Of a stretch of DNA of 27,455 nt, positions 4,214 through 27,315 are shown in pieces; the stretch's first letter is position 1; each line of letters opens with the position of its first letter. The notes beneath the pieces were generated by a model that saw only the letters and a list, made by a program, of their open reading frames with translations, was not told the DNA's origin and ran no database searches. Source of the DNA: Planctomycetota bacterium (GTDB lineage Bacteria > Planctomycetota > B15-G4 > SIAN01); assembly GCA_031409275.1 (NCBI GenBank), contig JANNXA010000023.1, positions 1 to 27,455 of the forward strand, given 5' to 3'. The position numbers and the translations under genes are program-made.

Positions 4214-6468
4214 GAGTTCTCCTGCTGGCGATTGGACTCGAAGGAGCGGGCCAAAGCGCACGCGGTGCGGTTGCTGATCGGGAACGCCAAGGCGGCGGCC
4301 CACAAGCGCGCGGTTGTTGGTGAGGCAGAAGCGGCGCGGATCGGCGGGCAAAGACCCGCGGGCCGCATGCGGCGAAGGGCGATCTCGACGGCGGCCGTGG
4401 CATCTCCTGATCGCAAGCGTCGGACGATTGCTTGGTCTGCAGGGATGTCGCGACCACGTTCGAGCGGCCACGGCAGGCATGCCAATCGCAGAGCGATCCA
4501 AGGCTCGGCGGGCCATGAACCTGCAGGTGCCGTTGCCGAAATGGGCGGCGTCGACCCCCGCCAATTCACCGCCATGAAGGCGTGAGCGAGCCCCGAGACG
4601 CGGTTCAGGTCCACGTCGCCCTCGACCAACGCGGCGAGGTCTGCGGGCTCGGCTCCGCATCCAGACGCTGCCACCAGCGGGAGGCGCCGCTGACCGCTCC
4701 GTGCGGCTTCGATCAAGCGTCGCTCGACGAGCGAAGAGAAGTCGGCGACCGGGTCTCGCCCGCTCATGACGACGCGCGGATCGCGGAACAGTCGCTTGTC
4801 CTGTTCGTGATAGCGACGCGCTCCAGGCTTCAGGGGGAGCCAGTGGTGTCGGATCGGATCAAGCGGTCGGCCGCGCCGGTCGTACTCCGCCGCCGCGCTG
4901 CCAAGCGCGCGAGCGAGTCGCCACTCGACGCTGCCGTCGTCCGACACGAGGACCCATTCGGGCTGCAGCCGCGGGATCGGACCTGCCCTGATGGCGGTTC
5001 CGCCCACTTGGATGGCCTCGATCGCTGCGGCGGACAGCAGCACGCTTTGCCAGCGTTCAGCAGTGTCGTCGTGCGTGAGCAGCGCGAAGACGGCGTTGGC
5101 AAGCTGCCGTTCGGCGTGGATCAACCGTGCCGGCGCATTCTTGTCGCGTGCGGCACGCTGGAGCCGGTCAAGCCAGGGCGAGAGATCGTCGATCAGGCGA
5201 GCACGCGGGCGCTCGACCACGTCGACGCGTCCAAGCGGAACGGCGAGCTGGGCTTGACCATTCCTTTCCAGGAAGCCGAATCGCGTGAATCCTCGGACGC
5301 CGCGCGCGGCTCCCAGCCGACTCACGGCGCGAACGACATCGACCGGTCGCTGCGCAGCATCCCGTCCAAGCTGCATGCGTGCTTCTCCGAGCATGGCCTC
5401 GAAGTCGCTTGCGGTGCTCGGTCGGGTCCAGAGGGGCATCCACTGCTCGCCTCGATCCGACTTCTCGGCGCCCGTGCTCCCGTGACCTACGGCATGCGCG
5501 CGGACCGAGAAGGGGGCGCTGGCACGGCTCGAAGCCCTGGGGTCGAGGCGCCGTGTTGAGCGGGCGCTGAACATCACGGCGCCTTCGATCATCAAGACGA
5601 AGTCCCAGGGATTGATGAAGCTGTCGCCGCCGGGACCGGTCGTGCTGTTCGCGCCACCGGCACTCCCCGGCAGGAACTGTCCGACGGCCCCCGCGACGAC
5701 GCCGCGGGTCACCGTGCGCCAAAGAGCGTCGGCGAGCAACCCGGATGCAACTGGACGTGGCCCACCGTCGGATGCGACGAAGAAGAGGTCATCGAGCCGT
5801 TGCATCGCATTGTTGGTGAAATCGACTCGGCCATCGTTGCCCCCAGTGCCGAGCAGAGCCGGGAAGGACGGTTTTCCCTCTTCCGGCAGGACGAGGGCGG
5901 CGTCCATCCATGCACGATGGGGCCCACGCCAGGCGAGTTCGCATGGCCTGAACAGGTCGGCCTTGAGGGATGCGAAGCACTCGTTTGCGGCCGCAAGGTC
6001 CGCCTTGTAGCCGGCATCGTTCTTCAAGGCCGCTGCCGCACGCTTCTGCTCGTCCGTCATCCCCTTCTTGGTCTTGGTGCGATCCTTCAACGCGCGCACC
6101 GCCGCGTCGGCAGCGGCGAGTTCCTTGAGCGGCGCTCGCGCGGACTTGATGCCGCGACGAAGCGCTGCGAACCGCGCTGCGGTCGACTTCTCGAGAGGTG
6201 TCAGTCCAGGGTCGTTCGGCGAGAAGAACCCCGAACCCTTGTTCCATGGCGACACGAACGGGGTCGGCGCGTACTCCTCGAGGAAGAAGCGATCGAGCGC
6301 TCGTCGATCCAGCGCTGTCAGCAAACAGAAGTGCTGGTCCTGCCACCACCCGCGGACGGTCGGATCCTTCTGCTCGGCGACCAGGCGCAGGATGCCCAGC
6401 GCCTTGAGGTAGTGGGCAAGCGGCACCGGGGAGCAGCCCCGAAGCTCGTGCATGTGCAAGGCGGTCAT
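4210..6468 (-). CDS. csx17: Type I-G large subunit Cas8g1 (Csx17)
   Basis: Motifs LRGCSPVPLAHYLKALGILRLVAEQKDP, PTPFVSPWNKGSGF, LLGTGGNDGRVDFTNN, NPWDFVLMIEGA and RFGFLERNGQA. Confidence 0.92.
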   Translation of the reverse strand: MTALHMHELRGCSPVPLAHYLKALGILRLVAEQKDPTVRGWWQDQHFCLLTALDRRALDRFFLEEYAPTPFVSPWNKGSGFFSPNDPGLTPLEKSTAARFAALRRGIKSARAPLKELAAADAAVRALKDRTKTKKGMTDEQKRAAAALKNDAGYKADLAAANECFASLKADLFRPCELAWRGPHRAWMDAALVLPEEGKPSFPALLGTGGNDGRVDFTNNAMQRLDDLFFVASDGGPRPVASGLLADALWRTVTRGVVAGAVGQFLPGSAGGANSTTGPGGDSFINPWDFVLMIEGAVMFSARSTRRLDPRASSRASAPFSVRAHAVGHGSTGAEKSDRGEQWMPLWTRPSTASDFEAMLGEARMQLGRDAAQRPVDVVRAVSRLGAARGVRGFTRFGFLERNGQAQLAVPLGRVDVVERPRARLIDDLSPWLDRLQRAARDKNAPARLIHAERQLANAVFALLTHDDTAERWQSVLLSAAAIEAIQVGGTAIRAGPIPRLQPEWVLVSDDGSVEWRLARALGSAAAEYDRRGRPLDPIRHHWLPLKPGARRYHEQDKRLFRDPRVVMSGRDPVADFSSLVERRLIEAARSGQRRLPLVAASGCGAEPADLAALVEGDVDLNRVSGLAHAFMAVNWRGSTPPISATAPAGSWPAEPWIALRLACLPWPLERGRDIPADQAIVRRLRSGDATAAVEIALRRMRPAGLCPPIRAASASPTTARLWAAALAFPISNRTACALARSFESNRQQENS

Positions 6469-7625
6469 GGCGGCTCCTTCTCAGGAGCGGCGCGCTGGTC
6501 GAGGAGTGCGCGGTCTGTCTCGACGAGGTGTTGCAGAGCCTCTACCGAAGGCAGCGCGACCTGGTAGCGAGAGACGAACAACTGGTGGTCGAGTCCGGCC
6601 GTCGCGTAGTGGACCTTGGTCTCGTCCTTGTCGCTGCACAGGATCAGTCCCACGGGCGGCTGGTCGCTGGCGCCGAGCATGTGGTCTTTCCACCACTGCA
6701 AATAAAAGTTCATCTGGCCGGCATCGCCGTGCGTGAACGAGCGCACCTTCAAGTCGATGAGCAGGTGGCAGCGCAGGACACGGTGATAGAAGACGAGGTC
6801 GATCCAGTCGTGCTCGTTGCCGACCGAGATTCGTTTCTGCCGTGCCTCGAAGCAGAAGCCGGTCCCGAGTTCGAGCAGGAACGCCTGCAGGTGATCGAGG
6901 AGAGCAGCCGCGAGATCGCTCTCGCGATACTGGGCGCGCTCCGCGAGGCCGGTGAACTCCAGCACGTACGGATCGCGGAGCTGGCTGGCGACCATCGGCT
7001 GTTCCGCCGCCGATCCGGTCCGCGCCGCGGCGATCACGGCCTGCTTGTCGATCGACAGGCCGGTGCGCTCGTAGAGCGACGAGCCGATCTGCCGGCGGAG
7101 TTCGCGCAGCGACCAGGACGCGCCCAACGTCTCGTTTTCGTAGAAGGCGCGCTTCCAAGGGTCGTCGAGGCGGAGCAGCTCGACGACATGCGACCAGGTG
7201 AACCGGAAGACCGCCTCGGCAGGGAGCGGGGGCACCAGTCGCTCCGAGGATTTCCGCGACACCGTCGCGGAAATCTCCCCGGAGGCCGCGATCCGCCGCA
7301 ATTCCGGCGATGGCGGGAACTGCGGCAGTGACTGCGCGGTGATCACCGGGCCCACCTGCGGATACGTCCGGTAGAAACCGCGCATTCGCTCGAGGACGTC
7401 GGGGCTCGTCCCGCGTAACCCGGAGGTCTCCAGATCTGCGGACAGGCGCTTCAGCAACCCGGACCCGTAGGTCGCACGATCTGCACCGCGCTGCTCGAAC
7501 TCGACGATCCATCCGCCGATCAACCAATTCCGCACCAGCAGCGCTCGATGCACGGCTGCCACGGCGCTGCCCAAGGTCTGGCCGTGCAGGGTGGTGATGG
7601 TTGCGACGAGGTCGATGTAGTTCAC
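6465..7625 (-). CDS. DUF1016 / YhcG-family PD-(D/E)XK nuclease embedded in the cas operon
   Basis: Motifs NWLIGGWIVEFEQRGADRATYG, TWSHVVELL, WSLRELRRQIGSSLYER, RDPYVLEF, FLLELGTGFCFEARQKRI, IDLVFYHRVLRCHLLIDLK, GQMNFY and PVGLILC. Confidence 0.92.
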   Translation of the reverse strand: MNYIDLVATITTLHGQTLGSAVAAVHRALLVRNWLIGGWIVEFEQRGADRATYGSGLLKRLSADLETSGLRGTSPDVLERMRGFYRTYPQVGPVITAQSLPQFPPSPELRRIAASGEISATVSRKSSERLVPPLPAEAVFRFTWSHVVELLRLDDPWKRAFYENETLGASWSLRELRRQIGSSLYERTGLSIDKQAVIAAARTGSAAEQPMVASQLRDPYVLEFTGLAERAQYRESDLAAALLDHLQAFLLELGTGFCFEARQKRISVGNEHDWIDLVFYHRVLRCHLLIDLKVRSFTHGDAGQMNFYLQWWKDHMLGASDQPPVGLILCSDKDETKVHYATAGLDHQLFVSRYQVALPSVEALQHLVETDRALLDQRAAPEKEPP

Positions 7626-10348
7626 GGTTGTTCTGGCCCGACTAGGGGCAACAACGGGTCGGTGGTGGAAAGCTGCGATGCTCGGCGATCCGCGGCGATC
7701 AGTATCGCTTCGAGCCAGGCCAGTGCGCCTGGGCCGAAGCGTTCGACGAGGCCGAGCGTGCGTTCGCGCCAGCTGCGCCCGGTCAGTGGTGAGAGTCCGA
7801 GATTGGCCGGCTCGAGCGAAAGCGTCAGCGCCGGAAGCGGCGCAGACGACGCCTCCATGTCGAGCGATACGGTGGGCAGCTCATCGCCTTCGCGCACGCC
7901 GCGGATCGGCAGGCCGCGGCCATCACCTCGGTCGCGGTAGTCCTGGTCCTTCGGCGCGGCATGGAGCGCAACGCGAACCTTGCCATGGTGCGAGGCGACG
8001 AGGTAGGCGAGCAGATCGAACTCGTCCGCCGAGCAGTCGAGCACGGCTTGTTCGTGGCGTGTCGGTGTTCTTGCCAACGGAACATCGGGTGCCGGACAGC
8101 CCATCAGCGCCAACGCCTCGACCCACGGCCCGAGCAGCGCCGGGTGTCGCGGCTGATTCAGCCGCAGCACCGCGAAGAGCGCCAGCGTGCTCGCGAGCTC
8201 GTGGCGCAGGCCCGGCCGCAGATCCCGATCGTCGATGGTGCGATAAGACTTGGGCGGCCGCGGCCACGCAGCGGTGGGCGCCTTCGCCAGATCCTGGCGA
8301 TCCGGCCGATCCGACGAGCGGATCGCTCCCTGGAACGCCGGGTGCGCCTTGCCGAGGTCATGCCAGCGACCGGCGAGCGTCAGCAACTCGCGCAACCTCG
8401 GCGGCAGCCCGATGGTCGTCGCGATGGCCGCCGCCGCATCCGCGACCTCCGCGCCGTGGCATGCGATCGTCTTCCACGGTGACGCGCTCAGCTCGTCGCT
8501 GTCCGGGCTCTCGCCTGCCTGGAGAGCCGCTTCCGTCATGGAAGGGAGCTCGGCCATCGGCACGACCGGAACGACATCCTGCGAGTGCGGGTCGAATCCA
8601 CGCGCGATGGCGTAGCCGCCCGCATCGTTCGCGACGCACACCACGCGGCCGGGGGTGAGGTGATGCCGCTCGGCGACAACCCAGGTGCCGTCGAGCCAAT
8701 CCCATACCCAGGCTCGGATGCCAGGACGCAGCCTGGGCTTCGGCTTGCTCTTGCTCTCCTCGCCGCAGAGCCAGTCGCGCGCACGCAGGAAGGGCACCGC
8801 GCAGAGTTCTTCGCGCCGCGGAAGCCGGCGCTGCCCGGGAACGTGTCGCACACCCTTCCGGTCCCGGGCGATCTCGAGCCAGAAGACCTGGAGGTCGCGT
8901 TCATCTCCGTTGCGGATGAAGCGGCTGATGTCGAGGTCAGCCCCCGTGAGGTCGGGGGTGGTGTCAAACAGCTCATCGAACTCGCGGCGCAGCAGCAGGT
9001 GTCGCGGCGCATAGGGATAGAGGCGTCGACGCTCGGAATCGTCGAGCCCCTCCTCGAACGCCTCGAGCGCTGCGATGCCGACGTTGCCTTGCGCCATCAG
9101 GTTCTCGACGGTGCTCCAAGCCGCTTCGAGCTCGTCCGGGCGATAGGGGAGCGCCGCTGTTTCGTCGCGGCCGCGATCGACGACCACTACATGCCCCGCG
9201 CCTCCGTAACGGGCGCATCGTCCGAAGCGTTGCACGAGGCTCGGCCACGGGGCGAGTTCGCTGACCACGCGACCGGCCGAAATATCGACGCCGGCCTCGA
9301 CCACCTGCGTGGCCACGATGATGCGGTCGACTTCCGGCTTGCACGCCGAGCGGCTGAGGAAGCGCTCGCGCCATGCGATGCGCTCTGCAGGGCGGAACCG
9401 GCTATGCACCAGCTCGATCCCGCCCGTTCGACCCCGTGCTCGCAGCGCGTCGAAAGTGCTGCAAGCCCGGGCGACGGTATTGCAGATCACCAACGTGATG
9501 CGGCCCCACTCGCCGTCGGGAGTCGCCGCATGCTCGTCGAGGATGCGCTGAGCGAAGGTGCGATGGCCTTCGTCGCCGTTGCCGGGGATGCGCGCGTGCG
9601 CCAAGGACTTCCGGATCGAGCCGACCCCTCGGTCCCGATCGGGGCGTGCGACGACGGTCGGATTGCGGCGCCACTCGTCGTGGCGTGACGCAGTGTCGAC
9701 GCTCTTCAGCCATGCGTCTTGGAGCGTTGCGCTCATCCACCAGGTGTGACGCGGTCGCATCCCTTTGGTTGCGTCCGCATCGTGGTACGCCTGCAACTGT
9801 GCGCTGGTCGCGAGGCCGACATCCATCAATTGGGCTTCGTCCATGACCCAGAGCGCGTCATGGCTGAGCAGTCCGAACTCGAGCGGCCAGCGAGCTCGAC
9901 CGCTGGCGTAGCCGCGGTTCAGTGCGCGAGAGAGCAACATGTCCTGCGTGCCGATCAGGACGGCCGGCTCCTCGGGAGACAAGCTCCATTCGCCGCCTGG
10001 ATCGGCGCCGCCCATCAACAGATGCAGACCGACCTTTCCTGCGTGCGAACCCGACCCGTTCCAGAGCGTCCCGAGCGATTCCAAAGCACGGCGCGCCACA
10101 TCTTCGGTCTGCTCTGCGAGCACGCGCATTGGCAAGCACCAGACGAGGCGCCGCGGCCATTGCTCATCGGCGCGACAAAGGCGATGCCAGCTCCAAGCGG
10201 CCAACACGCCAAGGGTTTTCCCCATGCCGGTCGGAACGCGTACGAGCCTGCTGCGTGGGGCGGCTTCACTTGCAAGCGCTTCTTGCCACGCATGCGGCGC
10301 CAATGAGTCGCCGGCGAGCTGTCTGAACCAATCGCGGTAACCGGGCAT
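7622..10348 (-). CDS. cas3: Type I-G Cas3 helicase-nuclease with C-terminal HD domain
   Basis: Walker A VPTGMGKT, IGTQDMLLSRALNRGY, DEAQ box, SAT motif, ATQVVEAGVDIS and QRFGRCAR, followed by the HD domain (TIACH..HDLGKAHPAFQ, RHELAS, SHHGKVR, AADRRAS). Start re-assigned to ATG 10348, with RBS GAAGGGGG. 908 aa. Confidence 0.95.
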   Translation of the reverse strand: MPGYRDWFRQLAGDSLAPHAWQEALASEAAPRSRLVRVPTGMGKTLGVLAAWSWHRLCRADEQWPRRLVWCLPMRVLAEQTEDVARRALESLGTLWNGSGSHAGKVGLHLLMGGADPGGEWSLSPEEPAVLIGTQDMLLSRALNRGYASGRARWPLEFGLLSHDALWVMDEAQLMDVGLATSAQLQAYHDADATKGMRPRHTWWMSATLQDAWLKSVDTASRHDEWRRNPTVVARPDRDRGVGSIRKSLAHARIPGNGDEGHRTFAQRILDEHAATPDGEWGRITLVICNTVARACSTFDALRARGRTGGIELVHSRFRPAERIAWRERFLSRSACKPEVDRIIVATQVVEAGVDISAGRVVSELAPWPSLVQRFGRCARYGGAGHVVVVDRGRDETAALPYRPDELEAAWSTVENLMAQGNVGIAALEAFEEGLDDSERRRLYPYAPRHLLLRREFDELFDTTPDLTGADLDISRFIRNGDERDLQVFWLEIARDRKGVRHVPGQRRLPRREELCAVPFLRARDWLCGEESKSKPKPRLRPGIRAWVWDWLDGTWVVAERHHLTPGRVVCVANDAGGYAIARGFDPHSQDVVPVVPMAELPSMTEAALQAGESPDSDELSASPWKTIACHGAEVADAAAAIATTIGLPPRLRELLTLAGRWHDLGKAHPAFQGAIRSSDRPDRQDLAKAPTAAWPRPPKSYRTIDDRDLRPGLRHELASTLALFAVLRLNQPRHPALLGPWVEALALMGCPAPDVPLARTPTRHEQAVLDCSADEFDLLAYLVASHHGKVRVALHAAPKDQDYRDRGDGRGLPIRGVREGDELPTVSLDMEASSAPLPALTLSLEPANLGLSPLTGRSWRERTLGLVERFGPGALAWLEAILIAADRRASQLSTTDPLLPLVGPEQP

Positions 10349-10473
10349 CGGTCCCCCTTCGCGGCCGCAGATTGGAGCGAAGGGAGCACGTATCGCGCAA
10401 GGGAGTTCTGTGAACGCCAACACGGTCGAGTTTGATTCGACGACTTGCCGAAGAACGCTTCGGGGTACTGACC
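10349..10473. promoter_or_regulatory. Divergent control region between cas3 and cas4/cas1
   Basis: 125-bp gap between head-to-head starts. It contains the inverted repeats cccttcgc/gcgaaggg (10355-10384) and ccgaag/cttcgg (10448-10463). No -35/-10 boxes could be called. Confidence 0.5.
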
Positions 10474-12195
10474 ATGAACACGAACGGCGAGTCTCCGTCC
10501 GCTGCCCAAGAACTCCTTCCCGTCCGCATGCTGAACGAGTTCGCGTACTGCCCGCGGCTCTTCCACTTCGAACGGGTGGACGGGCTGTTCGCTGACAGCG
10601 CCGACACGGTCGAGGGGCGCTCCGTCCATCGGCGGGTGGACGCCGTTGAGGACGTCCTGCCTGAGCCAGACGGGGAGGCGCAGCCCGAGGTGGCGCGCTC
10701 GGTCCAGCTCGGGAGCGAGCGCCTCGGGCTGATCGCCAAGATCGACCTCGTCGAGGTCGATGGGGACGTGGCGGTGCCGATCGACACGAAGAAGGGGCGC
10801 GTGCCCGACATCCCCGAGCAGGCCTACGAGCCGGAACGGGTCCAGGTCTGCGCGCAGGGGTTGCTGCTGCGCGAGCATGGCTACCGCTGCGACCACGGCT
10901 TCCTCTACTTCGCGGGGTCGCGGCGCCGAGTCCGCGTCGAGCTGACGCCGGAACTCGAGGCGCGGACGCGCGAGCTTGCAGCGGCGGCGCGAGCGGCCGC
11001 ATTGCTCACGGCTCCACCGCCTCCCTTGATCGACAGCCCGAAGTGCCCGCGCTGTTCGCTCGTCGGCATCTGTCTGCCGGACGAAACGAACTTTCTGCGC
11101 GAGCGCGAGTCGGTCGAGCAGCCACCGGACTCTGCTGCGACCGCGACGACATCTCGCGAGCCGCGTCGCCTCATCCCGTCGCGCGACGACGCGCAGCCCG
11201 TCTACGTGCAGGGGCAGGGCTACTCCGTCACTCGATCGGGCGACGTCCTCGTCATCACGGACAAGGGCAAGAAGCTCCGCGAAGTCCTCGTGAAGGACAT
11301 CTCGCATCTGGCGATCTTCGGCAACAACCAGGTCACGACGCAGTTGCTGCAGACGTTGTGCGGTGCCGAGGTGCCGGTGACCTGGTTCTCGCACGGAGGC
11401 TGGTTCTACGGGATGCTCCAAGGCTTCGGACTGCGCAACGCCTTCGTTCGCCGCGAGCAGTTCAGGAAGGCCGACGACCCCCTGTTCTGCGTCCAGCTCG
11501 CTCGCGAGTTCGTGGCGGGGAAGATCAGCAACTGCCGGACGCTGCTGCAGCGCAACCACTCTGCGCCGCCCGAGGACGCCTTGCGCGACCTGAAGGAAGC
11601 AGTCGCGACCGCTCGCGAGGCGACGACGCTGGAGACGCTGCTGGGGATCGAGGGCAATGCGGCGCGGATCTACTTCGGATCGTTCCAGGCGATGCTGAAG
11701 CCGAAGGGCGCCGAAGCTGCGCCGGCCTTCGACTTCAACGGCCGCAACCGCCGCCCGCCGCGCGATCCCGTCAATGCGATGCTGTCGTTCGTCTACAGCC
11801 TGCTGTCGAAGGACTTCACCATCGCCTGCATGGCGGTCGGACTCGATCCCTACCTCGGCTTCTATCACCAGCCGCGCCACGGCCGACCCGCGCTCGCGCT
11901 CGACCTGATGGAGGAGTTCCGGCCGCTCGTCGGCGACTCCGTCGTCCTCACGCTCGTCAACAACGGCGAGGTGGTCGCCGACGACTTCGTGGTGACCGAA
12001 GCTGGTTGCGCGATGACGCCGGCAGCCCGCTCGAAGTTGATCGGCGCGTATGAGCGTCGCCTCGACTCGCTCGTGACGCACCCGGTCTTCGACTATCGCG
12101 CGAGCTACCGACGCATCTTCGAGATCCAGGCGCGCCTGCTGACGCGGGTGCTTCAGGGCGAGGTGCGCTCCTACCCGTCCTTCACGACCCGGTGA
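10474..12195 (+). CDS. cas1: Cas4-Cas1 fusion
   Basis: Cas4 part: MLNEFAYCPR, KIDLVE..IDTKKG, QVCAQGLLL and KCPRCSLVGICLPDE. Cas1 part: LLGIEGNAARIYF, RRPPRDPVNAMLSFVY and LALDLMEEFRP. Likely start is ATG 10474. Confidence 0.96.
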   Translation: MNTNGESPSAAQELLPVRMLNEFAYCPRLFHFERVDGLFADSADTVEGRSVHRRVDAVEDVLPEPDGEAQPEVARSVQLGSERLGLIAKIDLVEVDGDVAVPIDTKKGRVPDIPEQAYEPERVQVCAQGLLLREHGYRCDHGFLYFAGSRRRVRVELTPELEARTRELAAAARAAALLTAPPPPLIDSPKCPRCSLVGICLPDETNFLRERESVEQPPDSAATATTSREPRRLIPSRDDAQPVYVQGQGYSVTRSGDVLVITDKGKKLREVLVKDISHLAIFGNNQVTTQLLQTLCGAEVPVTWFSHGGWFYGMLQGFGLRNAFVRREQFRKADDPLFCVQLAREFVAGKISNCRTLLQRNHSAPPEDALRDLKEAVATAREATTLETLLGIEGNAARIYFGSFQAMLKPKGAEAAPAFDFNGRNRRPPRDPVNAMLSFVYSLLSKDFTIACMAVGLDPYLGFYHQPRHGRPALALDLMEEFRPLVGDSVVLTLVNNGEVVADDFVVTEAGCAMTPAARSKLIGAYERRLDSLVTHPVFDYRASYRRIFEIQARLLTRVLQGEVRSYPSFTTR

Positions 12196-17082: not shown

Positions 17083-18570
17083 ATGCAGTACGGCTTCGTG
17101 ATCGATCACCGGCGCTGCATCGGGTGCCACGCCTGCACGGTCGCGTGCAAGGCGGAGAACGACGTCCCGCTCGGCAACTTCCGGACGTGGGTCAAGTACG
17201 TCGAGAAGGGGACCTTCCCCGAGGTGAAGCGCCACTTCGCGGTGCTGCGCTGCAACCACTGCACCGATGCGCCGTGCGTGACGATCTGCCCGGTGAACGC
17301 GCTCGACAAGCGCAAGGACGGCATCGTCGATCTCGATCGCGACGTCTGCATCGGTTGCCGCGCCTGCATGCAGGCTTGCCCCTACGACGCGCTCGCGCTG
17401 AACGAAGCGACCGGCGCGGTCGAGAAATGCCACTACTGCGCCCATCGAGTGGAGAAGGGGCTGCAACCGGCCTGTGTCATCGTCTGCCCCGAGCAGGCGA
17501 TCATCAGCGGCGACTTCCACGATCCGGCCAGCAAGCCGAGTCGCCTGATGGCGGAGCAGCCGTCGATCCGCCGCCGCACCGAGCAGAACACCGGTCCCAA
17601 CGTCGCCTACATCGGAGTCGAGCCGCTGGCGCTCGAGCCGGGCGCGATCGAGCGCCCCGCCACCTACCTCTGGAGCGAGCGGCCGCCGCAAAAGCCGGAG
17701 ATGTGGCCGCTCACGCTCCCGCTGGTCCCGAACGCGCGCGTCACGCTGGACGCGGGCCACAAGGTCGAGTGGGGCGGTGGAGTCGCGGCCTACCTCGTGA
17801 CCAAGGGGATCGCGGCCGGCGCGGCGATGCTCGCACCGTTCGTCGCGGCGCTGGGGTTGACCGGCTTCGCCGCCGATTGGCTCCCGGAGATCGCAGCGCT
17901 CTTCTTCGTGACGCTCACCACCTTCCTGCTGGTCGAGGATCTCAAGCGCCCCAAGCTCTTCCTCACGCTGCTGACGCGTGGCAATCGCAAGAGCTGGCTC
18001 GTGAAGGGGGCGTGGATCCTGATCGCCTTCTCGATCACGGTCAGCGCGACGCTGGCCGCGCGCTTCTTTCGCATCGATGCGGCGATCGCGCCGCTGCGCT
18101 GGGTGAACGCCGTGCTGGCGCTCGGCGTCGCCGGCTACACCGCATTCCTCTTCGCGCAGTGCGAGGGGCGCGACCTGTGGCAGGGGAAGCTCCTGCTGCC
18201 GCATCTGCTCGCGCAGGCGCTCTTCTGCGGCGCGGCGCTCTTCCTGCCGTTTGCGGCGGCAGCGCGCGAGGGGCTGCAGGCCGTCCTCGCCATCGGCGTC
18301 GCGGTGCACCTGCTCTGCTGCCTTGCCGAGCGCTGGATGAAGCACGCGACGGCGAATGCGCGCCAGGCCGCGGCATTCCTCGATGTGGTGAAGTTCGCCG
18401 GAAAGATCCCCGCGTTCCGCTTCGGAATGGTGGTGGTCGGCGCGCTGCTGCTGCCGCTCAGCAACGGCCCGGCCGCGATGCTCTTCGTCGTCCCGCTCCT
18501 GGCGTGGTGGGGGCTCTTCCTGTGGGAATGGGCCTACGTGCGAGCGGGGCAGCTGCCGCCGTTGTCGTGA
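17083..18570 (+). CDS. 4Fe-4S dicluster (NrfC/PsrB-like) protein fused to an NrfD/PsrC-like membrane anchor
   Basis: Cys motifs CIGCHACTVAC, CNHCTDAPC, CIGCRACMQAC and CHYC..PACVIVC, followed by about 8 hydrophobic helices with LVEDLKRP..SWLVKGAWIL. Confidence 0.9.
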   Translation: MQYGFVIDHRRCIGCHACTVACKAENDVPLGNFRTWVKYVEKGTFPEVKRHFAVLRCNHCTDAPCVTICPVNALDKRKDGIVDLDRDVCIGCRACMQACPYDALALNEATGAVEKCHYCAHRVEKGLQPACVIVCPEQAIISGDFHDPASKPSRLMAEQPSIRRRTEQNTGPNVAYIGVEPLALEPGAIERPATYLWSERPPQKPEMWPLTLPLVPNARVTLDAGHKVEWGGGVAAYLVTKGIAAGAAMLAPFVAALGLTGFAADWLPEIAALFFVTLTTFLLVEDLKRPKLFLTLLTRGNRKSWLVKGAWILIAFSITVSATLAARFFRIDAAIAPLRWVNAVLALGVAGYTAFLFAQCEGRDLWQGKLLLPHLLAQALFCGAALFLPFAAAAREGLQAVLAIGVAVHLLCCLAERWMKHATANARQAAAFLDVVKFAGKIPAFRFGMVVVGALLLPLSNGPAAMLFVVPLLAWWGLFLWEWAYVRAGQLPPLS

Positions 18571-18704: not shown

Positions 18705-20369
18705 TCAGTAGTCCCAGCCGAGCCGCAGCTGCAGTCCCTGCGTCATCGAGAGGCCGCCGGCGGCGCCAGGATCGAGCTCCACGACCTGCAGGAAGAAGTC
18801 GGAGAAGCCGAGCGCGGGGTCGTCGGGGAGATCCTCGCTGGCGCTGAAGCCGGCTGCCGGGATCGTGACGGGCAGCACGATCAGCGGCAGCACCAGCAGC
18901 GTCCCGCCCTTCTTGAGCGGGATCGTGGCGGTGGCATCTCCGATCAGCACCCAGCCGGTGGTCGTGGCGCCGCGCGAGTTGTTGGCGGTGAAGGTCAACG
19001 TGGCGCCGAGCTCGGGATCGCCGCTGACGGCGAGCGTCGGCGTGCCGAGCGTGCCGGGGAAGCCCGCGCCGTAGCTCGACTGCGAAGCGGGGCAGCCGAG
19101 GACGGCATGGACGATGCCTCGATTGCTGCCGGTCGCGCCGTACCACGCACTCGCCGGGATCAGCAGGTCGCCGATGCCGTCGCCGTTCCAGTCACCGGTG
19201 GCGAGGCTCCAGCCGAATCGCAGGTCGTGCGAGTCGGTCACGTCCTGGCCGTCGAACCGGTGCAGCTCGATGCCCGTCGCGCCAGAGAAGACGTGGACCG
19301 AGCCGAAGGGGGCCGCGGCGATCGCGGTGGCGAATTGCTCGGCGATGCCGTCACCGTCCCAGTCGCCGCCCGCGCCAAGGAAGTTCCCGAGCTGCTCCCC
19401 GGTGGCGCCGTACGTCGTGCGCAGGATGGCCAGCGTCGCACCACTGCGCAGCTCGACCCGGCCGTCATGCGTGCCCGAGCGGACGCCGGCGCCGATCAGG
19501 AAGTCCTCGACGCCGTCCTGGTCGACATCGTCCGTTCCGACGAGAGCTTCGCCGAGCCCGTCGTCGACACCGACGCCGCTGAGGGTCCGGATCCACGCGC
19601 CATCGGCGCCGGAGAAGATGCGGACGTAGCCTTCGTACTTCGCGGTGATCCAGCCGAAGGCATACCCGATCGCGAAGTCGCGTCGACCATCGCCGTCGAC
19701 GTCGCCGATCCGCGCCATCGAGCTGATGAACTGGTTGGGCGTGTTGAGCGTCGTCAGGTACGCCCCGGTCGCGCCGCTCAAGACGTCGACATCGTCTGTG
19801 CCGGTGAGGTAGGCGGCCAGCAGATCGGCGCGGCCATCGCCATCGAGGTCATCGATCGCGCAGAGTTCGCGGCCGAAGTAGTCGAAGCCATCGAGCCCGT
19901 CGGACGCCCAGAGCAGCTGTCCGGTTGCGCCACTGTAGGCCTCGACGCGGCCGGCGGCCGAGTTGGACCCGGCGTCGTGAAAGGGCGCCGACGCCGCGTA
20001 GTCGGGGATCGTGTCGCCATCGACATCGCCGAGCGCAACCACATGGTCGCCGAGGAAATCGAAGTTGGCTCCGCCGACATGGGTGCGGATCAGCGTCCCG
20101 GTTGCGCCGCTGATGACGTGGATCTGTCCCACGTCGATCCCGGTCGCCGTGTCCGCAGACGGTTCGCCGACGATCCAGTCGTCGCATTGGTCGCCGTCGA
20201 TGTCGCCGATCATCACGACCGCCGCGCCGAGCTCCGCCCCGTCTTGTGTCCCTTCCAGGCGCAGCTGTTCGACCTGGGCACGAGCCGTGGTCGCGACCGC
20301 CAGGACGGCGCACCACGCCGCCGCGGTCGCCCCGAAGACGCGTTTCGTTTTCGCCACCCGTTGCCGCAT
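18705..20369 (-). CDS. Secreted FG-GAP (integrin alpha beta-propeller-like) repeat protein
   Basis: Repeated GDxDGDGxxDxxxG and xxFSGATG motifs, and a signal peptide ending ARA-Q. Start re-assigned to ATG 20369, with RBS AGAGGAG. Confidence 0.9.
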   Translation of the reverse strand: MRQRVAKTKRVFGATAAAWCAVLAVATTARAQVEQLRLEGTQDGAELGAAVVMIGDIDGDQCDDWIVGEPSADTATGIDVGQIHVISGATGTLIRTHVGGANFDFLGDHVVALGDVDGDTIPDYAASAPFHDAGSNSAAGRVEAYSGATGQLLWASDGLDGFDYFGRELCAIDDLDGDGRADLLAAYLTGTDDVDVLSGATGAYLTTLNTPNQFISSMARIGDVDGDGRRDFAIGYAFGWITAKYEGYVRIFSGADGAWIRTLSGVGVDDGLGEALVGTDDVDQDGVEDFLIGAGVRSGTHDGRVELRSGATLAILRTTYGATGEQLGNFLGAGGDWDGDGIAEQFATAIAAAPFGSVHVFSGATGIELHRFDGQDVTDSHDLRFGWSLATGDWNGDGIGDLLIPASAWYGATGSNRGIVHAVLGCPASQSSYGAGFPGTLGTPTLAVSGDPELGATLTFTANNSRGATTTGWVLIGDATATIPLKKGGTLLVLPLIVLPVTIPAAGFSASEDLPDDPALGFSDFFLQVVELDPGAAGGLSMTQGLQLRLGWDY

Positions 20370-20566
20370 GGTTCGCACTCCTCTGGTCGCTTGCGGGCGA
20401 TGCCGTCGCCGCGCGTTGGACCGGTTGGTGTCGTGCCGCGGCGCTCCAGTCAAGCGGGGCGGGAACGGGGGCGCCGTGCGGCGCGGCGCCGCCGCCGGAA
20501 GCCGCGGCCAGCGACCGGCGGGCCGACTCTCGCCGCAGGGTCGGCGACCCGCTACGGTGCCGCACC

Positions 20567-23350
20567 ATGCGCAGCCACGATCCCGAAGAGATGACGGTCA
20601 CGCCGCTCGAGAACTTCCCGCCGCTCGACCAGTGGGATGACTGGGTCGAGTACGAGTCGAAGAGCTGGCCGAAGAAGGTCGAGAAGCACTACATGCTGCT
20701 TCCGACCATCTGCTTCAACTGCGAGGCGGCGTGCGGTCTGGTGGCGTACGTCGACAAGCAGGATCTGTCGATCCGCAAGCTCGAAGGCAATCCGTATCAC
20801 CCCGGCTCGCGCGGCCGCAACTGCGCGAAGGGGCCGGCGACGCTGAACCAGGTCGAGGACCCGGGCCGGATCCTCTATCCGATGAAGCGGGTCGGGCCGC
20901 GCGGCGGCGGCAAGTTCGAGCGCACGACGTGGGACGAGGTGCTCGACGTCTTCGCCAAGAAGATCCGCGCGGCGCTCGTCGAAGGGCGCAAGACCGAAGT
21001 GATGTACCACGTCGGCCGACCCGGACACGACGGCTACATGGATCGCGTGCTGCAGGCGTGGGGCGTCGACGGCCACAACAGCCACACCAACGTCTGCAGC
21101 GCGGCCGCGCGGCTCGGCTACGCGCTGTGGCAGGGCGTCGATCGACCCTCGCCCGACCACGCCAACGCGAAGTTCATCCTGCTCTTGTCGAGCCACCTGG
21201 AGACGGGCCACTACTTCAACCCGCACGCGCAGCGGATCATCGACGGGAAGATGGCGGGCGCGAAGCTGTGCGCCATCGACATCCGCCTGTCGAACACGGC
21301 CTCGATGGCCGACTACTGGATGGCGCCGAATCCCGGCAGCGAGGCGTTCCTGCTGCTCGCCTTCGCGCACGTGATCCTCGAAGAGGGGCTGATCGATCGG
21401 AAGTTCGTCGACGAGTGGACCAACTGGCCCGAGTACATGGCGGCGCTGGCGCCCGACGCGCCGGCGACCTTCGAGCAGTTCCTGGTCGAGTTGAAGCGCC
21501 ACTACGCGCAATACACCCCCGACGCGGCGGCGAAGGAGTGTGGCGTCGCGAAGGAGCAGATCGTCGCCGTCGCGCGCGAGATCGGGAAGGCGGGCCACGG
21601 CTTCGCGAGCCACGTCTGGCGCAACGCGGCGTCGGGCAACCGCGGCGGCTGGCAGGTCGCGCGCTGCCTCCATTTCCTGTCGGTGCTGGTCGGTGCGGTG
21701 GGTTCCGAAGGCGGCACCAACTTGAACACCGCCGACAAGTTCGTGCCGGCGCCGTTCGCCAAGCCACCGCCGCAGAAAGTGTGGAACGAGCTGCTCTACC
21801 CGCGCGAGTGGCCGCTCTCCCACCACGAGCTCTCCTACCTGCTGCCGCATCTGCTGAAGGACGGCCGCGGCAAGCTCGCCGCCTACTTCACGCGCGTCTA
21901 CAACCCGGTCTGGACCAACCCCGACGGGATGATGTGGGAGCAGGTGCTGCGCGACGAGAAGCTGGTCGAGTTGCACGCCGCGCTGACGCCGACCTGGAGC
22001 GAGACGGCGCAGTACGCCGACTACGTGCTGCCGATGGGGCTCGGTGCCGAGCGCCACGACCTGATGTCGCAGGAGACGCACGCTGGCCGCTGGATCGGCT
22101 TCCGGCAGCCGGTTCGCCGCGCCGCGATGGCGAAGCTCGGCAAGAAGGTCGAGTGGACCTGGCAGGCCAACCCCGGCGAGGTGTGGGAAGAGGACGAGTT
22201 CTGGATCGCGCTGTCATGGCGCATCGATCCCGACGGGTCGCTCGGCGTGCGGCAGTGGTTCGAGTCGCCCTACCGCAAGGGCGAGCGGATCACCATCGAC
22301 GAGTACTACGGCTGGATCTTCGAGAACACCGTGCCGGGGCTGCCCGAGGCGGCGAAGGCGATGGGCCTCACGCCGCTCGAGTACATGCGCAAGTTCGGGG
22401 CGTTCGAGATCAAGGGCAGCACCTACGACACCTTCAAGAAGCCGCTCGCGGAGAAGGAGCGGGCCGGCACGAGCGACGATGCTGCGAAGCGCATCGTGGT
22501 GAAAGACGGCAAGGCGGTCGGCGTGCTGGCCGAGGGGGCGGCGCGCGTCGGGCTCGCCACACCCAGCCGCCGTTTCGAGCTCTACAGCAAGACGATGGCC
22601 GATTGGGGCTGGCCCGAGCAGGCGCTGCCCGGCTACCTCGAGAGCCACGTGCACCCGAAGCACCTCGATCCGGCGCACGGCGACTACGTCCTGGTGCCGA
22701 CCTTCCGCCTGCCCACGCTGATCCACACGCGCAGCGCGAACGCGAAGTGGCTTTACGAACTGTCGAACACCAACCCGGTCTGGATCCACCCGACCGATGC
22801 GAAGCGGCTCGGCCTCGAGACGCTCGACCTCGTGCGCGTCGCGACGCGCATCGGCCACTTCATCAACAAGACCTGGGTGACCGAGGGGGTGCGGCCCGGT
22901 GTCATCGCCTGCAGCCACCATCTCGGCCGTTGGCGACTGTTCGACGAGGGCGGCACCGATCGCTGGGCCAGCGCGCTGGTGAAGCGCGAAGAGCTCTCGC
23001 CCGGCCGCTTCCGCTTCCGTCGCGTGAAGGGCATCGCGCCGTGGAAGTCGAGCGACAAGGACAGCTCGCGCGTCTGGTGGACCGACGGCGGCGTGCACCA
23101 GAACCTCACCTTCCCGGTGCAGCCCGACCCGATCAGCGGCATGCATTGCTGGCACCAGCGCGTCCACGTCGAGAAGGCGCGCGCCGGCGATGCCTACGGC
23201 GACGTCGAAGTCGACACCGTGAAGTCGATGGAGGTCTTCCGCGAGTGGATGGCGCTCGCCCGCCCCGGACCGGGACCTGACCACCTGCGGCGACCGCTCT
23301 GGTTCAACCGCGCGGTGAAGCCGGCGCCGGAGGCGTACAAGTTCCCGTGA
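20567..23350 (+). CDS. Mo-bisPGD (DMSO reductase family) oxidoreductase catalytic subunit, no Tat signal
   Basis: 4Fe-4S motif CFNCEAACG..GSRGRNCAKG, RILYPMKR, probable Mo ligand segment HNSHTNVCS, SETAQYADYVLP, and a C-terminal dinucleotide-binding domain (WIHPTDA, TEGVRPG). Start is ATG 20567 or ATG 20591. Confidence 0.92.
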   Translation: MRSHDPEEMTVTPLENFPPLDQWDDWVEYESKSWPKKVEKHYMLLPTICFNCEAACGLVAYVDKQDLSIRKLEGNPYHPGSRGRNCAKGPATLNQVEDPGRILYPMKRVGPRGGGKFERTTWDEVLDVFAKKIRAALVEGRKTEVMYHVGRPGHDGYMDRVLQAWGVDGHNSHTNVCSAAARLGYALWQGVDRPSPDHANAKFILLLSSHLETGHYFNPHAQRIIDGKMAGAKLCAIDIRLSNTASMADYWMAPNPGSEAFLLLAFAHVILEEGLIDRKFVDEWTNWPEYMAALAPDAPATFEQFLVELKRHYAQYTPDAAAKECGVAKEQIVAVAREIGKAGHGFASHVWRNAASGNRGGWQVARCLHFLSVLVGAVGSEGGTNLNTADKFVPAPFAKPPPQKVWNELLYPREWPLSHHELSYLLPHLLKDGRGKLAAYFTRVYNPVWTNPDGMMWEQVLRDEKLVELHAALTPTWSETAQYADYVLPMGLGAERHDLMSQETHAGRWIGFRQPVRRAAMAKLGKKVEWTWQANPGEVWEEDEFWIALSWRIDPDGSLGVRQWFESPYRKGERITIDEYYGWIFENTVPGLPEAAKAMGLTPLEYMRKFGAFEIKGSTYDTFKKPLAEKERAGTSDDAAKRIVVKDGKAVGVLAEGAARVGLATPSRRFELYSKTMADWGWPEQALPGYLESHVHPKHLDPAHGDYVLVPTFRLPTLIHTRSANAKWLYELSNTNPVWIHPTDAKRLGLETLDLVRVATRIGHFINKTWVTEGVRPGVIACSHHLGRWRLFDEGGTDRWASALVKREELSPGRFRFRRVKGIAPWKSSDKDSSRVWWTDGGVHQNLTFPVQPDPISGMHCWHQRVHVEKARAGDAYGDVEVDTVKSMEVFREWMALARPGPGPDHLRRPLWFNRAVKPAPEAYKFP

Positions 23351-24915: not shown

Positions 24916-26145
24916 TCACTGTTCCTTCGCGAGCCCAGCCTCCAGCATCCGCTGGTACTTCCGTGTCCACTCGTCGGGGTCGAAGCTCTTGAACAGCTCT
25001 TCGACGGCGAGCTGCGCGATGACCTTGCCTTCCGCAGTCACCACCATCGAATCGACCGGGTAGGTGTAGGCGGCGAGGATCGCTCGCGCGACGACGCGCG
25101 CCTCATCGGTGGCAAAGGCCGCGTCGATGGCGGCGCGCGAGACGAACTGCGGCCGCACGATCCAGGCGTTGACGAACTCCTCGTTCAGCTGCTCGATCAC
25201 TTCCAGGTTCGAGAGCGGACCCGCTCTCAGCGTCTTGCCCGAGCCTCAGCAACTCTCGTCATCGAGCGTGCCGAACAGCGCCACCACGTGCAGCGGCTTG
25301 CCGCTCTGCGTCGCCTCTTCCACCGCCGCCTCGAAGGGCAGCCAGTCGACTTTGGCGAAGTCGTAGAAGCAGCGCGCCAACAGCGTCGCCGCGCGTTCCT
25401 CGTCGATCTGCGCGTTCCACGGCTCGCGGGTCACGATCTGCGCGAGCGTGTCGGTGTGGTCGTTCGCGGCGCCGGTGAGTCCGAGTCGCGGCACGTAGCC
25501 GATGTCCGCCTCGACCATCGCAGGCTTGCCGTCGCCACTCGGCTGCGCCCAGTTGAGGTCGACATTGCTGTCGCGCGCTGGAACGCCGAGTTCAAGCGCC
25601 AGCGGCCGGTTGCTGACGCGCTCGAAGACGATGCGTCCCGCGAGCTGCGCTGGCGTGTACCACGAGCCGATGTCATCGAGCGGGAAGTCGGCATGGAGGC
25701 GCACCTGCACGACGTCGAGCTGTTCGTTGCGTGCCACGAGCAGCGCGAAGCCACCGTCCGTTTGACACGCCAGGTGCATCTCGAGCTGCGCGGTCGCGTG
25801 GAGCTGGCGCACGATCGGCAGGACACGCTCAGGATCGAGCCGCCAGCTCGTTCCGACGGTCGCCGTCGCGGGCGGCGCGAAACCGGAGAGCTCCGCGTCG
25901 CTCCACGTGTGCTGCCGCTCCGCGGGCGCCAGCGTGGCCAGCCGCGGCCAGCGCTGCTGGAAGCCGTAGGCTGAACGCGCGATCGGCTCCCAGACGGCCG
26001 TCACGACGAGTCCGTCGCCCTTCGCGGTCGCTGCGGTGGCGATCTCACCGGGAGTCCACGCGATGACTCCGACGCCCATCAGCCACGCGCTGTAGCGGAA
26101 TCGCTTGGCGAACGAAGTTGCTTTTGTGGTGGCAGTCATCGGCAC
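24916..26145 (-). CDS. Selenoprotein N (SELENON)-like selenoprotein; in-frame TGA at 25246-25248 read as Sec
   Basis: ORFs 25246-26145 and 24916-25200 are in the same frame. Readthrough gives KPLHVVALFGTLDDESC-U-GSGKTLRAGPLSNLEVIEQLNEEFVNAW..YTYPVD, matching the eukaryotic SelN signature ..GALDDQSCUGSGRTLR... A SECIS-like hairpin follows the TGA. About 409 aa, with an alternative ATG start at 26139. Confidence 0.88.
25211..25228 (-). promoter_or_regulatory. Bacterial SECIS-like hairpin of the SelN-like gene
   Basis: mRNA sense GAGAGCG-GGUC-CGCUCUC: a perfect 7-bp stem with a GGUC loop, 24 nt between the UGA and the loop. Confidence 0.8.
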
Positions 26146-26379
26146 TCTCGTGGCTCGTGAATCGCCCGGGCTTGTGAAGTTGGAGGACCACCGATACGCG
26201 GCAGCGCGGTCGTCGTGAGACGCAAAATCGCTCCGCCATGTTCCCGCGGTGGCTTGGCCGGGGGGATCCGCGTGATCCTCGAAATCGCTGCGGCGCCTCG
26301 CTGGCTCCTGCCGGGATAGGCTCGGAGCACGGACGCCGCCGGTCGGTGTCGCGATCGATCAAGTCTGGAGTCCTGCGCC

Positions 26380-27315
26380 ATGAGAGCATTCATCGTGATC
26401 CCGGCACTGTCGCTGCTCCTCTCCGGCGCGGCACCGCCACAAGACGAGGTGGAGCTGCGATTCAGCGACTGCGACGCGCAGCGGCCCGCACTGTTGACGG
26501 GCGTCGGCGATCTCGTCGAGATCATGCTCCGTGGCCCGCCCGTCGATCCGCTCGTGCTGCGTGCGACGATGAAGGTCGAGGAGCGCGAGGTCGCGATCTA
26601 CCTGCCCAAGGCGCCGCTCTACTCGCGCGAGAACCGTGGCAGCGACTCGACCGGAATGGAGAACAGCAGCACGCTCCTCTCGATCGACGACGACGGGGAT
26701 GGCGTGCTGACCGAGCGCGAGTCGTGGCACGCGAACCTGCCGCTGCGGATCGGCGACACGATGTTCGACGTCGTCGAGCTGGCGGCCGATGGTCGTCGCA
26801 TGGTGGTGCGCCGTTCGACGGAGCCGCTCTCGGGCATCGTCGTCGGCCGTCGCGTCCCGCCGTTCGAGCTGCGGACCGCGTCGGGCCAGACCTTCAGCGA
26901 CGCTTCGCTGGCGGGCAAACCCTTCGTGCTCGACCTCTGGTCCGTGACCTGACACAACTGCATCGAAGAGTTCCCCCTGGTTCAGGGGGTTCAACGCAAA
27001 TGGGGCGAGCGACTCCTTCCGGTGATCCTGGTCGCCGTCGACCGCGGCTTTGGCAGCAAGGATGCGGAGTTCGTGCCGCAGGCAGCGCGCATCCTCGAAG
27101 CCCACGGTGTCGCATGGCCGAACACAATCGCCGAAAACGGTTTCGAGACGACCAAGCGCCGGTTCAACCTCGACGGCTACACGAAGGTGCTCGTCGATCC
27201 GCACGGCATCGTCCGGGCGGTGGGCATGCACGGCACCGAGCTGGCCGAGAAGGTCGAGGCCGTGATGCGGGAGTGGGCGAACGAGCGGCGGGGCAAGCAC
27301 GATGGAGCCGAGTAA
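26380..27315 (+). CDS. Exported TlpA/ResA-like thioredoxin-fold selenoprotein (UxxC); in-frame TGA at 26950-26952 read as Sec
   Basis: ORFs 26380-26952 and 27022-27315 are in the same frame. Readthrough gives VGRRVPPFELRTASGQTFSDASLAGKPFVLDLWSVT-U-HNCIEEFPLV..ILVAVD..TKVLVDPHGIVR, so U occupies the first Cys of the TlpA WxxxCxxC motif. N-terminal signal peptide. 311 aa. Confidence 0.88.
26973..26989 (+). promoter_or_regulatory. Bacterial SECIS-like hairpin of the TlpA-like gene
   Basis: CCCCCUG-GUU-CAGGGGG: a perfect 7-bp stem with a loop starting GU, 27 nt between the UGA and the loop. Confidence 0.75.

Follow-up and report, generated by a model that had tools for sequence, protein, structure and literature searches.

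Do two genes that face each other across a short intergenic region of a Planctomycetota genome, each containing an in-frame TGA codon, encode selenoproteins, and do their products form a dedicated redox pair? The window analysed here, from which the question arises, is the entire contig C23 of genome G000 (27,455 nt), and the named close homologues are from Planctomycetota. We find that both TGA codons are very likely read as selenocysteine (Sec, U in motifs) at redox positions, SC-U-G in gene 1 and U-H-N-C in gene 2, and that, judged by sequence, gene 1 belongs to a widespread bacterial Sec family, not found by us in published catalogues, that is related to animal selenoprotein N (SELENON). 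The family is the new part of this result and the pair is a lead: our preferred reading, to which we give a probability of roughly 0.55, takes both products for thiol-redox enzymes, likely exported, that belong to one envelope network and do not make up a dedicated two-gene relay. The locus is laid out as follows.

24916..26139, minus strand: gene 1, SELENON-like (SelN-like) selenoprotein gene, 407 amino acids (aa) from ATG at 26139 to the stop at 24916; alternative start GTG at 26145
26140..26379, no strand: divergent intergenic region, 240 bp, with GGAG about 14 nt ahead of the gene 2 ATG
26380..27315, plus strand: gene 2, selenoprotein gene of TlpA/redoxin-like type; product of 311 aa whose start resembles a signal peptide

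The initial annotation had described two Sec-candidate genes head to head across about 235 bp, had seen hairpins resembling a Sec insertion sequence (SECIS) within both, had thought two independent nonsense mutations implausible, and had called the products SelN-like and TlpA-like. These points stand up to closer analysis, the gap being 240 bp from ATG to ATG, or 234 bp if gene 1 starts at GTG; the export-like hydrophobic N-terminal segments that it saw in both products are clear in gene 2 and only moderate in gene 1. Each gene has a single in-frame TGA. That of gene 1 (25246-25248) lies in the context GTLDDESC-U-GSGKTLRAGPL and is followed by 109 open codons, and that of gene 2 (26950-26952) lies in the context DLWSVT-U-HNC and is followed by 120. 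The genome encodes tRNA-Sec, SelA, SelB and SelD (the three proteins score over their cut-offs), and its SelD gene has a TGA of its own. The codons and hairpins concerned are these.

25246..25251, minus strand: TGC TGA codons of gene 1 for the Cys-Sec pair in its SCUG motif, at a predicted helix start after the core strand, which is the thioredoxin active-site position
25211..25228, minus strand: SECIS-like hairpin of gene 1, 7 bp stem and GGUC loop, conserved across the family
26950..26961, plus strand: U-H-N-C (UxxC) active site of gene 2, with the TGA at 26950-26952
26973..26989, plus strand: SECIS-like hairpin of gene 2, 7 bp stem and GUU loop; in the orthologue of genome G006 the TGA is likewise followed by a similar hairpin

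In gene 1 the hairpin reads GAGAGCG-GGTC-CGCTCTC, with its loop about 24 nt after the UGA, and in gene 2 it reads CCCCCTG-GTT-CAGGGGG, with its loop about 27 nt after; the first loop base is G in both. When the surrounding codons were replaced by synonymous ones 2000 times, the stability of the gene 1 hairpin was matched by 0.2-1.5% of the re-codings and that of the gene 2 hairpin by 1.2-2.4% (ranges over three windows).

Homologues of gene 1 point in the same direction. A search returned 326 of them at E <= 0.001, and among the best 150 of the 326, which were listed, 115 stop exactly at the SC ahead of the TGA and 8 more stop at xC there. Existing records of both genes are likewise cut at the TGA (P0003, P0158), and the family stays hidden because gene callers, halting at this codon, split its members in two. 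Several full-length homologues read CC at the Cys-Sec site (Cys forms P0010, P0011 and P0012). In the DNA of the homologues 73 motif sites were compared, with three counted twice in overlapping loci, and at 68 of them 90 or more codons are open past the TGA; the other five comprise three that leave the contig end and two that stop early.

The hairpin of gene 1 is in addition fixed at the level of codons. Across 37 distinct RAGPL-type sequences, the hairpin codons GCG, GGT and CCG occur in all 37, and CTC and AGA/AGG each occur in 36, while in G000 as a whole AGA accounts for 0.5% of Arg codons and GGT for 9% of Gly codons. Frozen synonymous sites and rare codons of this kind indicate that the hairpin is under constraint as RNA. 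In a 36-row alignment pairing is kept in 99.6% of 252 stem cells and 2 changes are compensatory, and 2 of 500 shuffles reach this value, a comparison to be read with the selection of the rows for one hairpin register and with the inflation of pairing measures that related sequences can cause. Other subgroups of the family carry a shifted hairpin at the same place after the TGA. For gene 2, all six close orthologues compared (6/6) end at DLWS[IV]T, the G006 orthologue has a TGA, and Cys counterparts of the Sec are found by general CxxC homology only. The hairpin support is strong for gene 1, where it is family-wide, and moderate for gene 2 (p ~0.01-0.02, one orthologue). A scan of G000 gave 156 read-through candidates, 41 of them with a SECIS-like hairpin, and by motif we take about 25 of these to be real.

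We then asked what gene 1 encodes. Its product divides into three parts.

26059..26091, minus strand: moderately hydrophobic N-terminal segment of gene 1, residues 17-27, which follows a basic stretch and is likely a signal peptide or an anchor (Kyte-Doolittle value 1.79)
25369..26013, minus strand: N-terminal beta-rich domain, about residues 43-257, common to SELENON; no clear structural match
24919..25362, minus strand: C-terminal thioredoxin-fold domain, about residues 260-407 (best Z 10.5, root-mean-square deviation 1.9, 104 residues aligned)

Among the proteins recovered by the homologue search were one of hagfish that bears the name Selenoprotein N (E 2.6e-16) and others of wombat, Nematostella and jellyfish. 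A profile of the family aligned with the hagfish protein by HHalign at 99.95% (E 2e-38, 287 columns), and gene 1 aligns with the wombat protein on either side of the Sec, with 29% identity across 280 residues (E 8e-31). On these sequence comparisons gene 1 is a homologue of the animal SELENON core. Gene 1 does not contain the EF-hand loop pattern, which the proteins P0055 and P0122 do contain, and because of its absence we assign gene 1 to the homologues of the SELENON core and not to SELENON itself. Pfam and NCBIfam 20.0 contain no match for gene 1, and 62 family members yielded one marginal match per library (E ~0.01); a sequence search of the PDB gave no match to the family.

An AlphaFold2 model of the gene 1 product (mean predicted local distance difference test score, pLDDT, 91.6) shows a beta-rich N-terminal domain and a C-terminal thioredoxin fold. 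The latter most resembles structures of the DsbD-gamma-like, DsbH and AGR/ERp18 types (Z up to 10.5), with the Cys-Sec pair predicted at the start of a helix after the core strand and Tyr-Pro ahead of the next strand. The N-terminal domain taken alone has no Foldseek match at E <= 0.001, and its best VIA-align hits (Z 5.2) are unrelated beta-barrels, which does not imply a new fold. The best 11-residue Kyte-Doolittle mean near the N-terminus is 1.79, a moderate value, and 52 of 56 bacterial homologues reach at least 1.8. The product is probably exported, its catalytic part may lie outside the cytoplasm, and we consider it likely to be an exported SelN-like thiol reductase.

The homology with eukaryotic SELENON (SEPN1) extends over both core domains and includes the SCUG motif, as given in the accessible part of PMC12839072, and a thioredoxin domain in which the Sec lies; the gene 1 product is probably located outside the cytoplasm as well. 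The gene 1 product differs from SELENON in that it lacks the EF-hand and is about 180 residues shorter, reads DDESC rather than DDQSC, and is encoded with a bacterial SECIS inside the coding region where SELENON has one in the 3' untranslated region. In the sections of PMC7474598 available to us, the EF-hand of human SEPN1 is described as sensing calcium and the protein as a reductase acting on client proteins, without a solved structure as of 2020.

The family has a scattered distribution, with a match in 13 of the 401 phylum genomes sampled and in 10 of the 42 genomes of the order. A pattern search of metagenomes returned 71 matches, of which 55 are family members and 16, off-frame chance matches in other genes, were removed; since the pattern contains TGA, it is uninformative on the ratio of Sec to Cys forms. 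A scan of genome contigs with a single protein gave one locus only. In a tree of 114 sequences (FastTree, midpoint root and so in effect unrooted, most rows without a taxon label) the DDESC group that includes the gene 1 product is separate from the animal sequences, whose neighbours are DDQSC-type homologues; the tree gives no direction of transfer.

Several variants of the family were observed along the way. Tandem arrays of SelN-like Sec paralogues occur in L126, L127, L072, L068, L106 and L102, with at least four in a row in L126 and L127, and many of these paralogues carry a C-terminal extension of about 150 aa without a Pfam match, which also occurs in the single-copy L035, L140 and L141. 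In G026 (L144:7869-9212) the N-terminal domain stands without the thioredoxin part and is fused to a cyclophilin-type prolyl isomerase, and a similar copy without the thioredoxin part runs off a contig of G034 (L149). Frames without the SCUG region, by internal loss in L038 (G030) and by an early end in L037 (G001), are either real derivatives or assembly errors. SelN-like domains are also found behind sigma-70 or extracytoplasmic function (ECF) sigma factors, leucine-rich repeats or a large protein containing tetratricopeptide repeats (TPR) (P0010, P0076, P0068, P0024). Elsewhere in G000 a Sec candidate reading GHPLGCV-U-NNG (C43:63697, plus strand) has a layout that resembles the SelN thioredoxin domain by eye, and may represent a further distant family.

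The product of gene 2 is of a different type. With 28.7 bits its thioredoxin-like domain exceeds the cut-off of PF00578 (26 bits), and it falls far under the cut-offs of NCBIfam TlpA (32.2 against 230) and ResA (30.6 against 170), and because of these low scores we call it TlpA-like only. Its best N-terminal hydrophobicity, 2.78 at residues 4-14, is clear, and the product is probably exported. Ahead of the redox domain lies a lineage-specific N-terminal domain with the following loop.

26686..26721, plus strand: DxDxDG-type (EF-hand-loop-like) motif DDDGDGVLTERE of gene 2; predicted Ca-binding loop

This loop is present in 8/8 close orthologues; orthologues with the same N-terminal domain were found in 2 of the 42 genomes of the class. 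A cis-proline ahead of the last core strand is a usual feature of TlpA/ResA-type proteins. By inspection gene 2 is without it, reading DGYTKVLVD where TlpA domains such as that of P0174 read SIPTRWLID, and the G006 orthologue likewise lacks it. Gene 2 resembles the known bacterial TlpA/ResA/redoxin UxxC selenoproteins in PF00578, in its weak TlpA/ResA matches, in UxxC and in the signal-like start, and differs from them in scoring under the NCBIfam cut-offs, in the DxDxDG domain and in the missing cis-proline. Such UxxC families are listed in Table 1 of PMC13188914, as far as that text was accessible, under the Prx-like thiol:disulfide oxidoreductases (PF00578) and the redoxin family (PF08534).

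How might the two products work in one envelope network? SelB would bind the hairpin after each UGA, and Sec would be inserted; the conservation of the hairpin and the presence of the machinery argue for this step. The beta-rich domain of the SelN-like protein may bind clients, a role suggested by the cyclophilin to which it is fused in G026. The protein would then reduce or rearrange client disulfides, with the Sec attacking and the neighbouring Cys resolving, as would be expected from the predicted fold and from the work on human SEPN1. The oxidised Cys-Sec pair would be recharged by the membrane carrier DsbD, either directly or via one of about 10 TlpA/redoxin-type selenoproteins of G000, among which the gene 2 product is one candidate. 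DsbD and TlpA are known to form an electron relay, and the DsbD of G000 (C51:106506, minus strand) has a C-terminal thioredoxin domain that reads U-I-N-C, with a SECIS-like hairpin.

The alternative that survives best is narrower: the TlpA-like product would be the specific reductant of the SelN-like product, both would be under a shared divergent control region, and the DxDxDG loop might supply calcium sensing in trans. We consider this possible but unlikely. The initial annotation had proposed a co-regulated envelope relay in which the TlpA-like protein serves the SelN-like one as redox partner, and had named absence of the pairing from other genomes, together with a lack of interaction or co-expression, as the result that would speak for chance adjacency. 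A TlpA profile seeded on gene 2, which recovers 25 such domains in G000 (11 with TGA), found no TlpA upstream of SelN in any of the 34 informative loci, by which we mean distinct SelN loci whose upstream flank spans 1200 bases or more. Among the 70 other SelN loci only one, L095, has a clear TlpA anywhere; a weak TlpA-like fragment downstream in L073 (E 6e-4) was excluded from this count. The same-genus genome G004 (61% identity) keeps the SelN gene with its Sec, its SECIS and the flanking gene order and has a DUF3592 gene in the slot of gene 2, and no gene 2 orthologue was found in that assembly (91% complete). In G006 the SelN gene and the gene 2 orthologue are unlinked: they occupy separate contigs, and in stretches of 18 kb neither has the other nearby. 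An all-against-all comparison of neighbouring open reading frames (ORFs) at 68 distinct loci revealed no recurring SelN partner other than SelN paralogues and the synteny of close kin. The gene 2 orthologues, moreover, are sparser (2/42 in the class) than the SelN-like genes (10/42). Finally, promoter and repeat scans of the intergenic region (26140..26379) found no sigma-70 consensus and no convincing operator repeat, with nothing above chance, so that a shared operator was not seen, and a search with Rfam gave no match anywhere in the window. The pairing of genes 1 and 2 is mostly not conserved, and they are probably neighbours in part of one genus only; for this reason a dedicated relay is possible but is not the best reading, and a relay in the form of a conserved, co-regulated two-gene unit lacks support.

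Several observations nevertheless count in favour of the dedicated pair and weigh against the broader network that we prefer. The gene 2 product is not a generic TlpA, having its own N-terminal domain with the DxDxDG loop and no usual cis-proline, and the EF-hand loop that gene 1 lacks has its counterpart in this loop of gene 2 and of seven orthologues. Adjacency of the SelN gene to one of the 8-11 Sec-thioredoxin genes would arise by chance with a probability of 0.3-0.5%, although the question was posed post hoc; on the opposite side, the chance of at least one adjacent Sec pair of any kind is 9-19%, given 22-31 Sec genes among an assumed 4500-4900. A second species of the genus probably keeps the pair on one contig: P0004, a SelN protein with 55% identity, and P0161, an orthologue of gene 2 with 64%, are each known from Logan only, with 3 contigs of which the longest has 4205 bases, and we place them together because of this matching contig signature, which the two proteins of the window itself also show. 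Gene order is kept across the genus regardless, however, and inheritance within the genus explains the P0004 and P0161 pair equally well.

The remaining support comes from a fusion. At L095 a SelN part with Sec, a TPR-like region and a TlpA domain form one frame, with the TGA seen in the DNA and the same SECIS in the SelN part. A search for longer proteins that contain the post-Sec half gave 199 matches, and in 116 of the 119 examined (from the best 120, P0011 being omitted) a SelN half is followed by a TlpA domain; four rows are named Poribacteria. The query contained the SelN half of L095 and favours this Poribacteria clade. Such a Rosetta-stone fusion shares both domain types with our locus, but it differs in being one polypeptide, and its TlpA domain, which is about 30% identical to gene 2, is not orthologous to it. 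The first TlpA Cys is kept in none of the 116 fused domains, which read N/H/S-x-x-C, with neither that Cys nor Sec. Because 117 of the 119 proteins form one cluster at 70% and the first cysteine is absent, we regard the fusion as one event in one clade and not as a classical reductant. In G000 itself, two Sec candidates in repeat-containing proteins (C14:295797 and C34:64177, both minus strand) have a CxxC TlpA-like domain fused downstream in frame, which is a further point for the pair. The absence of the pairing elsewhere is thus extensive without being complete, P0004 with P0161 and the Poribacteria fusion being the departures from it. Known operons with two adjoining Sec genes, grdAB, prdBC, SAO and Tso, as described in the accessible part of PMC13188914, offer a comparison, although those are co-directional and recurrent whereas genes 1 and 2 are divergent and their arrangement was not found in the 34 informative loci.

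A second alternative, which we judge improbable, gives the SelN-like protein the main role of a redox sensor or switch in the envelope, in place of that of a foldase-type reductase, and has it operate independently of any TlpA. It could account for the homologues fused behind sigma-70/ECF sigma factor domains (P0010, P0076), the tandem paralogue arrays in some metagenome loci, and the lack of a recurring enzyme partner in the 68 distinct loci. Most homologues, including the gene 1 product, nonetheless carry no signalling domain, no regulator recurs nearby, and the human homologue, according to the available sections of PMC7474598, is a reductase on clients. More doubtful again is a split bacterial selenoprotein N, in which the SelN core would reside on one gene and the facing Sec-thioredoxin would carry the Ca-binding loop and recharge the core. 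That one or both TGAs are true stops, in pseudogenes or split genes, is very improbable: gene callers do end both genes there (P0003, P0158) and a mobile-element-like repeat adjoins the gene 2 stop codon, but the TGA position is kept in dozens of genomes, where the frame beyond it remains intact, Cys variants, a conserved SECIS and complete Sec machinery accompany it, and a stop there would halve a thioredoxin fold.

The repeat just mentioned is a feature of the contig end.

27316..27455, no strand: repeat resembling a miniature inverted-repeat transposable element (MITE), about 158 bp long and bounded by terminal inverted repeats of 17 bp, inserted at the gene 2 TAA stop; it ends the contig

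It occurs at about 25 other places in G000 with T-N-A flanks, and identical copies end contigs C23, C24, C36 and C49. An attC identity was considered for it and dropped in favour of a MITE, given the dispersed copies, the terminal inverted repeats and the flanks. The TAA flank of the MITE and synteny with G004 lead us to believe that C23 probably continues into C24. Elsewhere in the window, the minus strand at 1572-11002 carries Type I-G CRISPR-Cas genes (cas3g, cas8g1/csx17, csb1, csb2), with a YhcG/DUF1016 PD-(D/E)XK nuclease gene between cas3 and cas8g. On the plus strand a 4Fe-4S/NrfD fusion (17083-18570) and a molybdopterin oxidoreductase gene (20246-23350) are separated by an FG-GAP gene on the opposite strand; the molybdopterin oxidoreductase adjoins SelN in G004 too.

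We searched the literature for a bacterial SELENON homologue and found none, most subscription journals lying outside the search. In the accessible part of a 2026 review (PMC13188914), 119 prokaryotic selenoprotein families are tabulated; UxxC redoxins are among them and a SELENON-like family is not. The available portions of BSepDB and PMC4807772 make no mention of a bacterial SELENON, though the BSepDB supplement or the S9 table of PMC4807772 might still contain one, and a term search of the accessible text of deep-Sep, of the Asgard selenoprotein paper and of PMC6627142 found none either. The term 'bacteri' is absent from the part of PMC12839072, on SELENON, that could be searched, and SELENON has been reported in algae in the accessible part of PMC7539508.

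The gene 1 family enlarges the prokaryotic selenoproteome and brings with it an N-terminal domain without a clear solved relative. A specific two-gene relay would matter more, and the genomic support for it is partial; if the split form of selenoprotein N were true, it would, together with the Poribacteria fusion, suggest that SelN proteins receive their electrons from a TlpA-type thioredoxin and point to a bacterial envelope origin for an enzyme of the endoplasmic reticulum. Loss of SELENON causes congenital myopathy, and the bacterial homologue is compact and probably soluble, has natural Cys variants (P0011, P0012) and is modelled with confidence (pLDDT 91.6). Its structure, the chemistry of the Cys-Sec pair and its preference among donors should therefore be directly testable.

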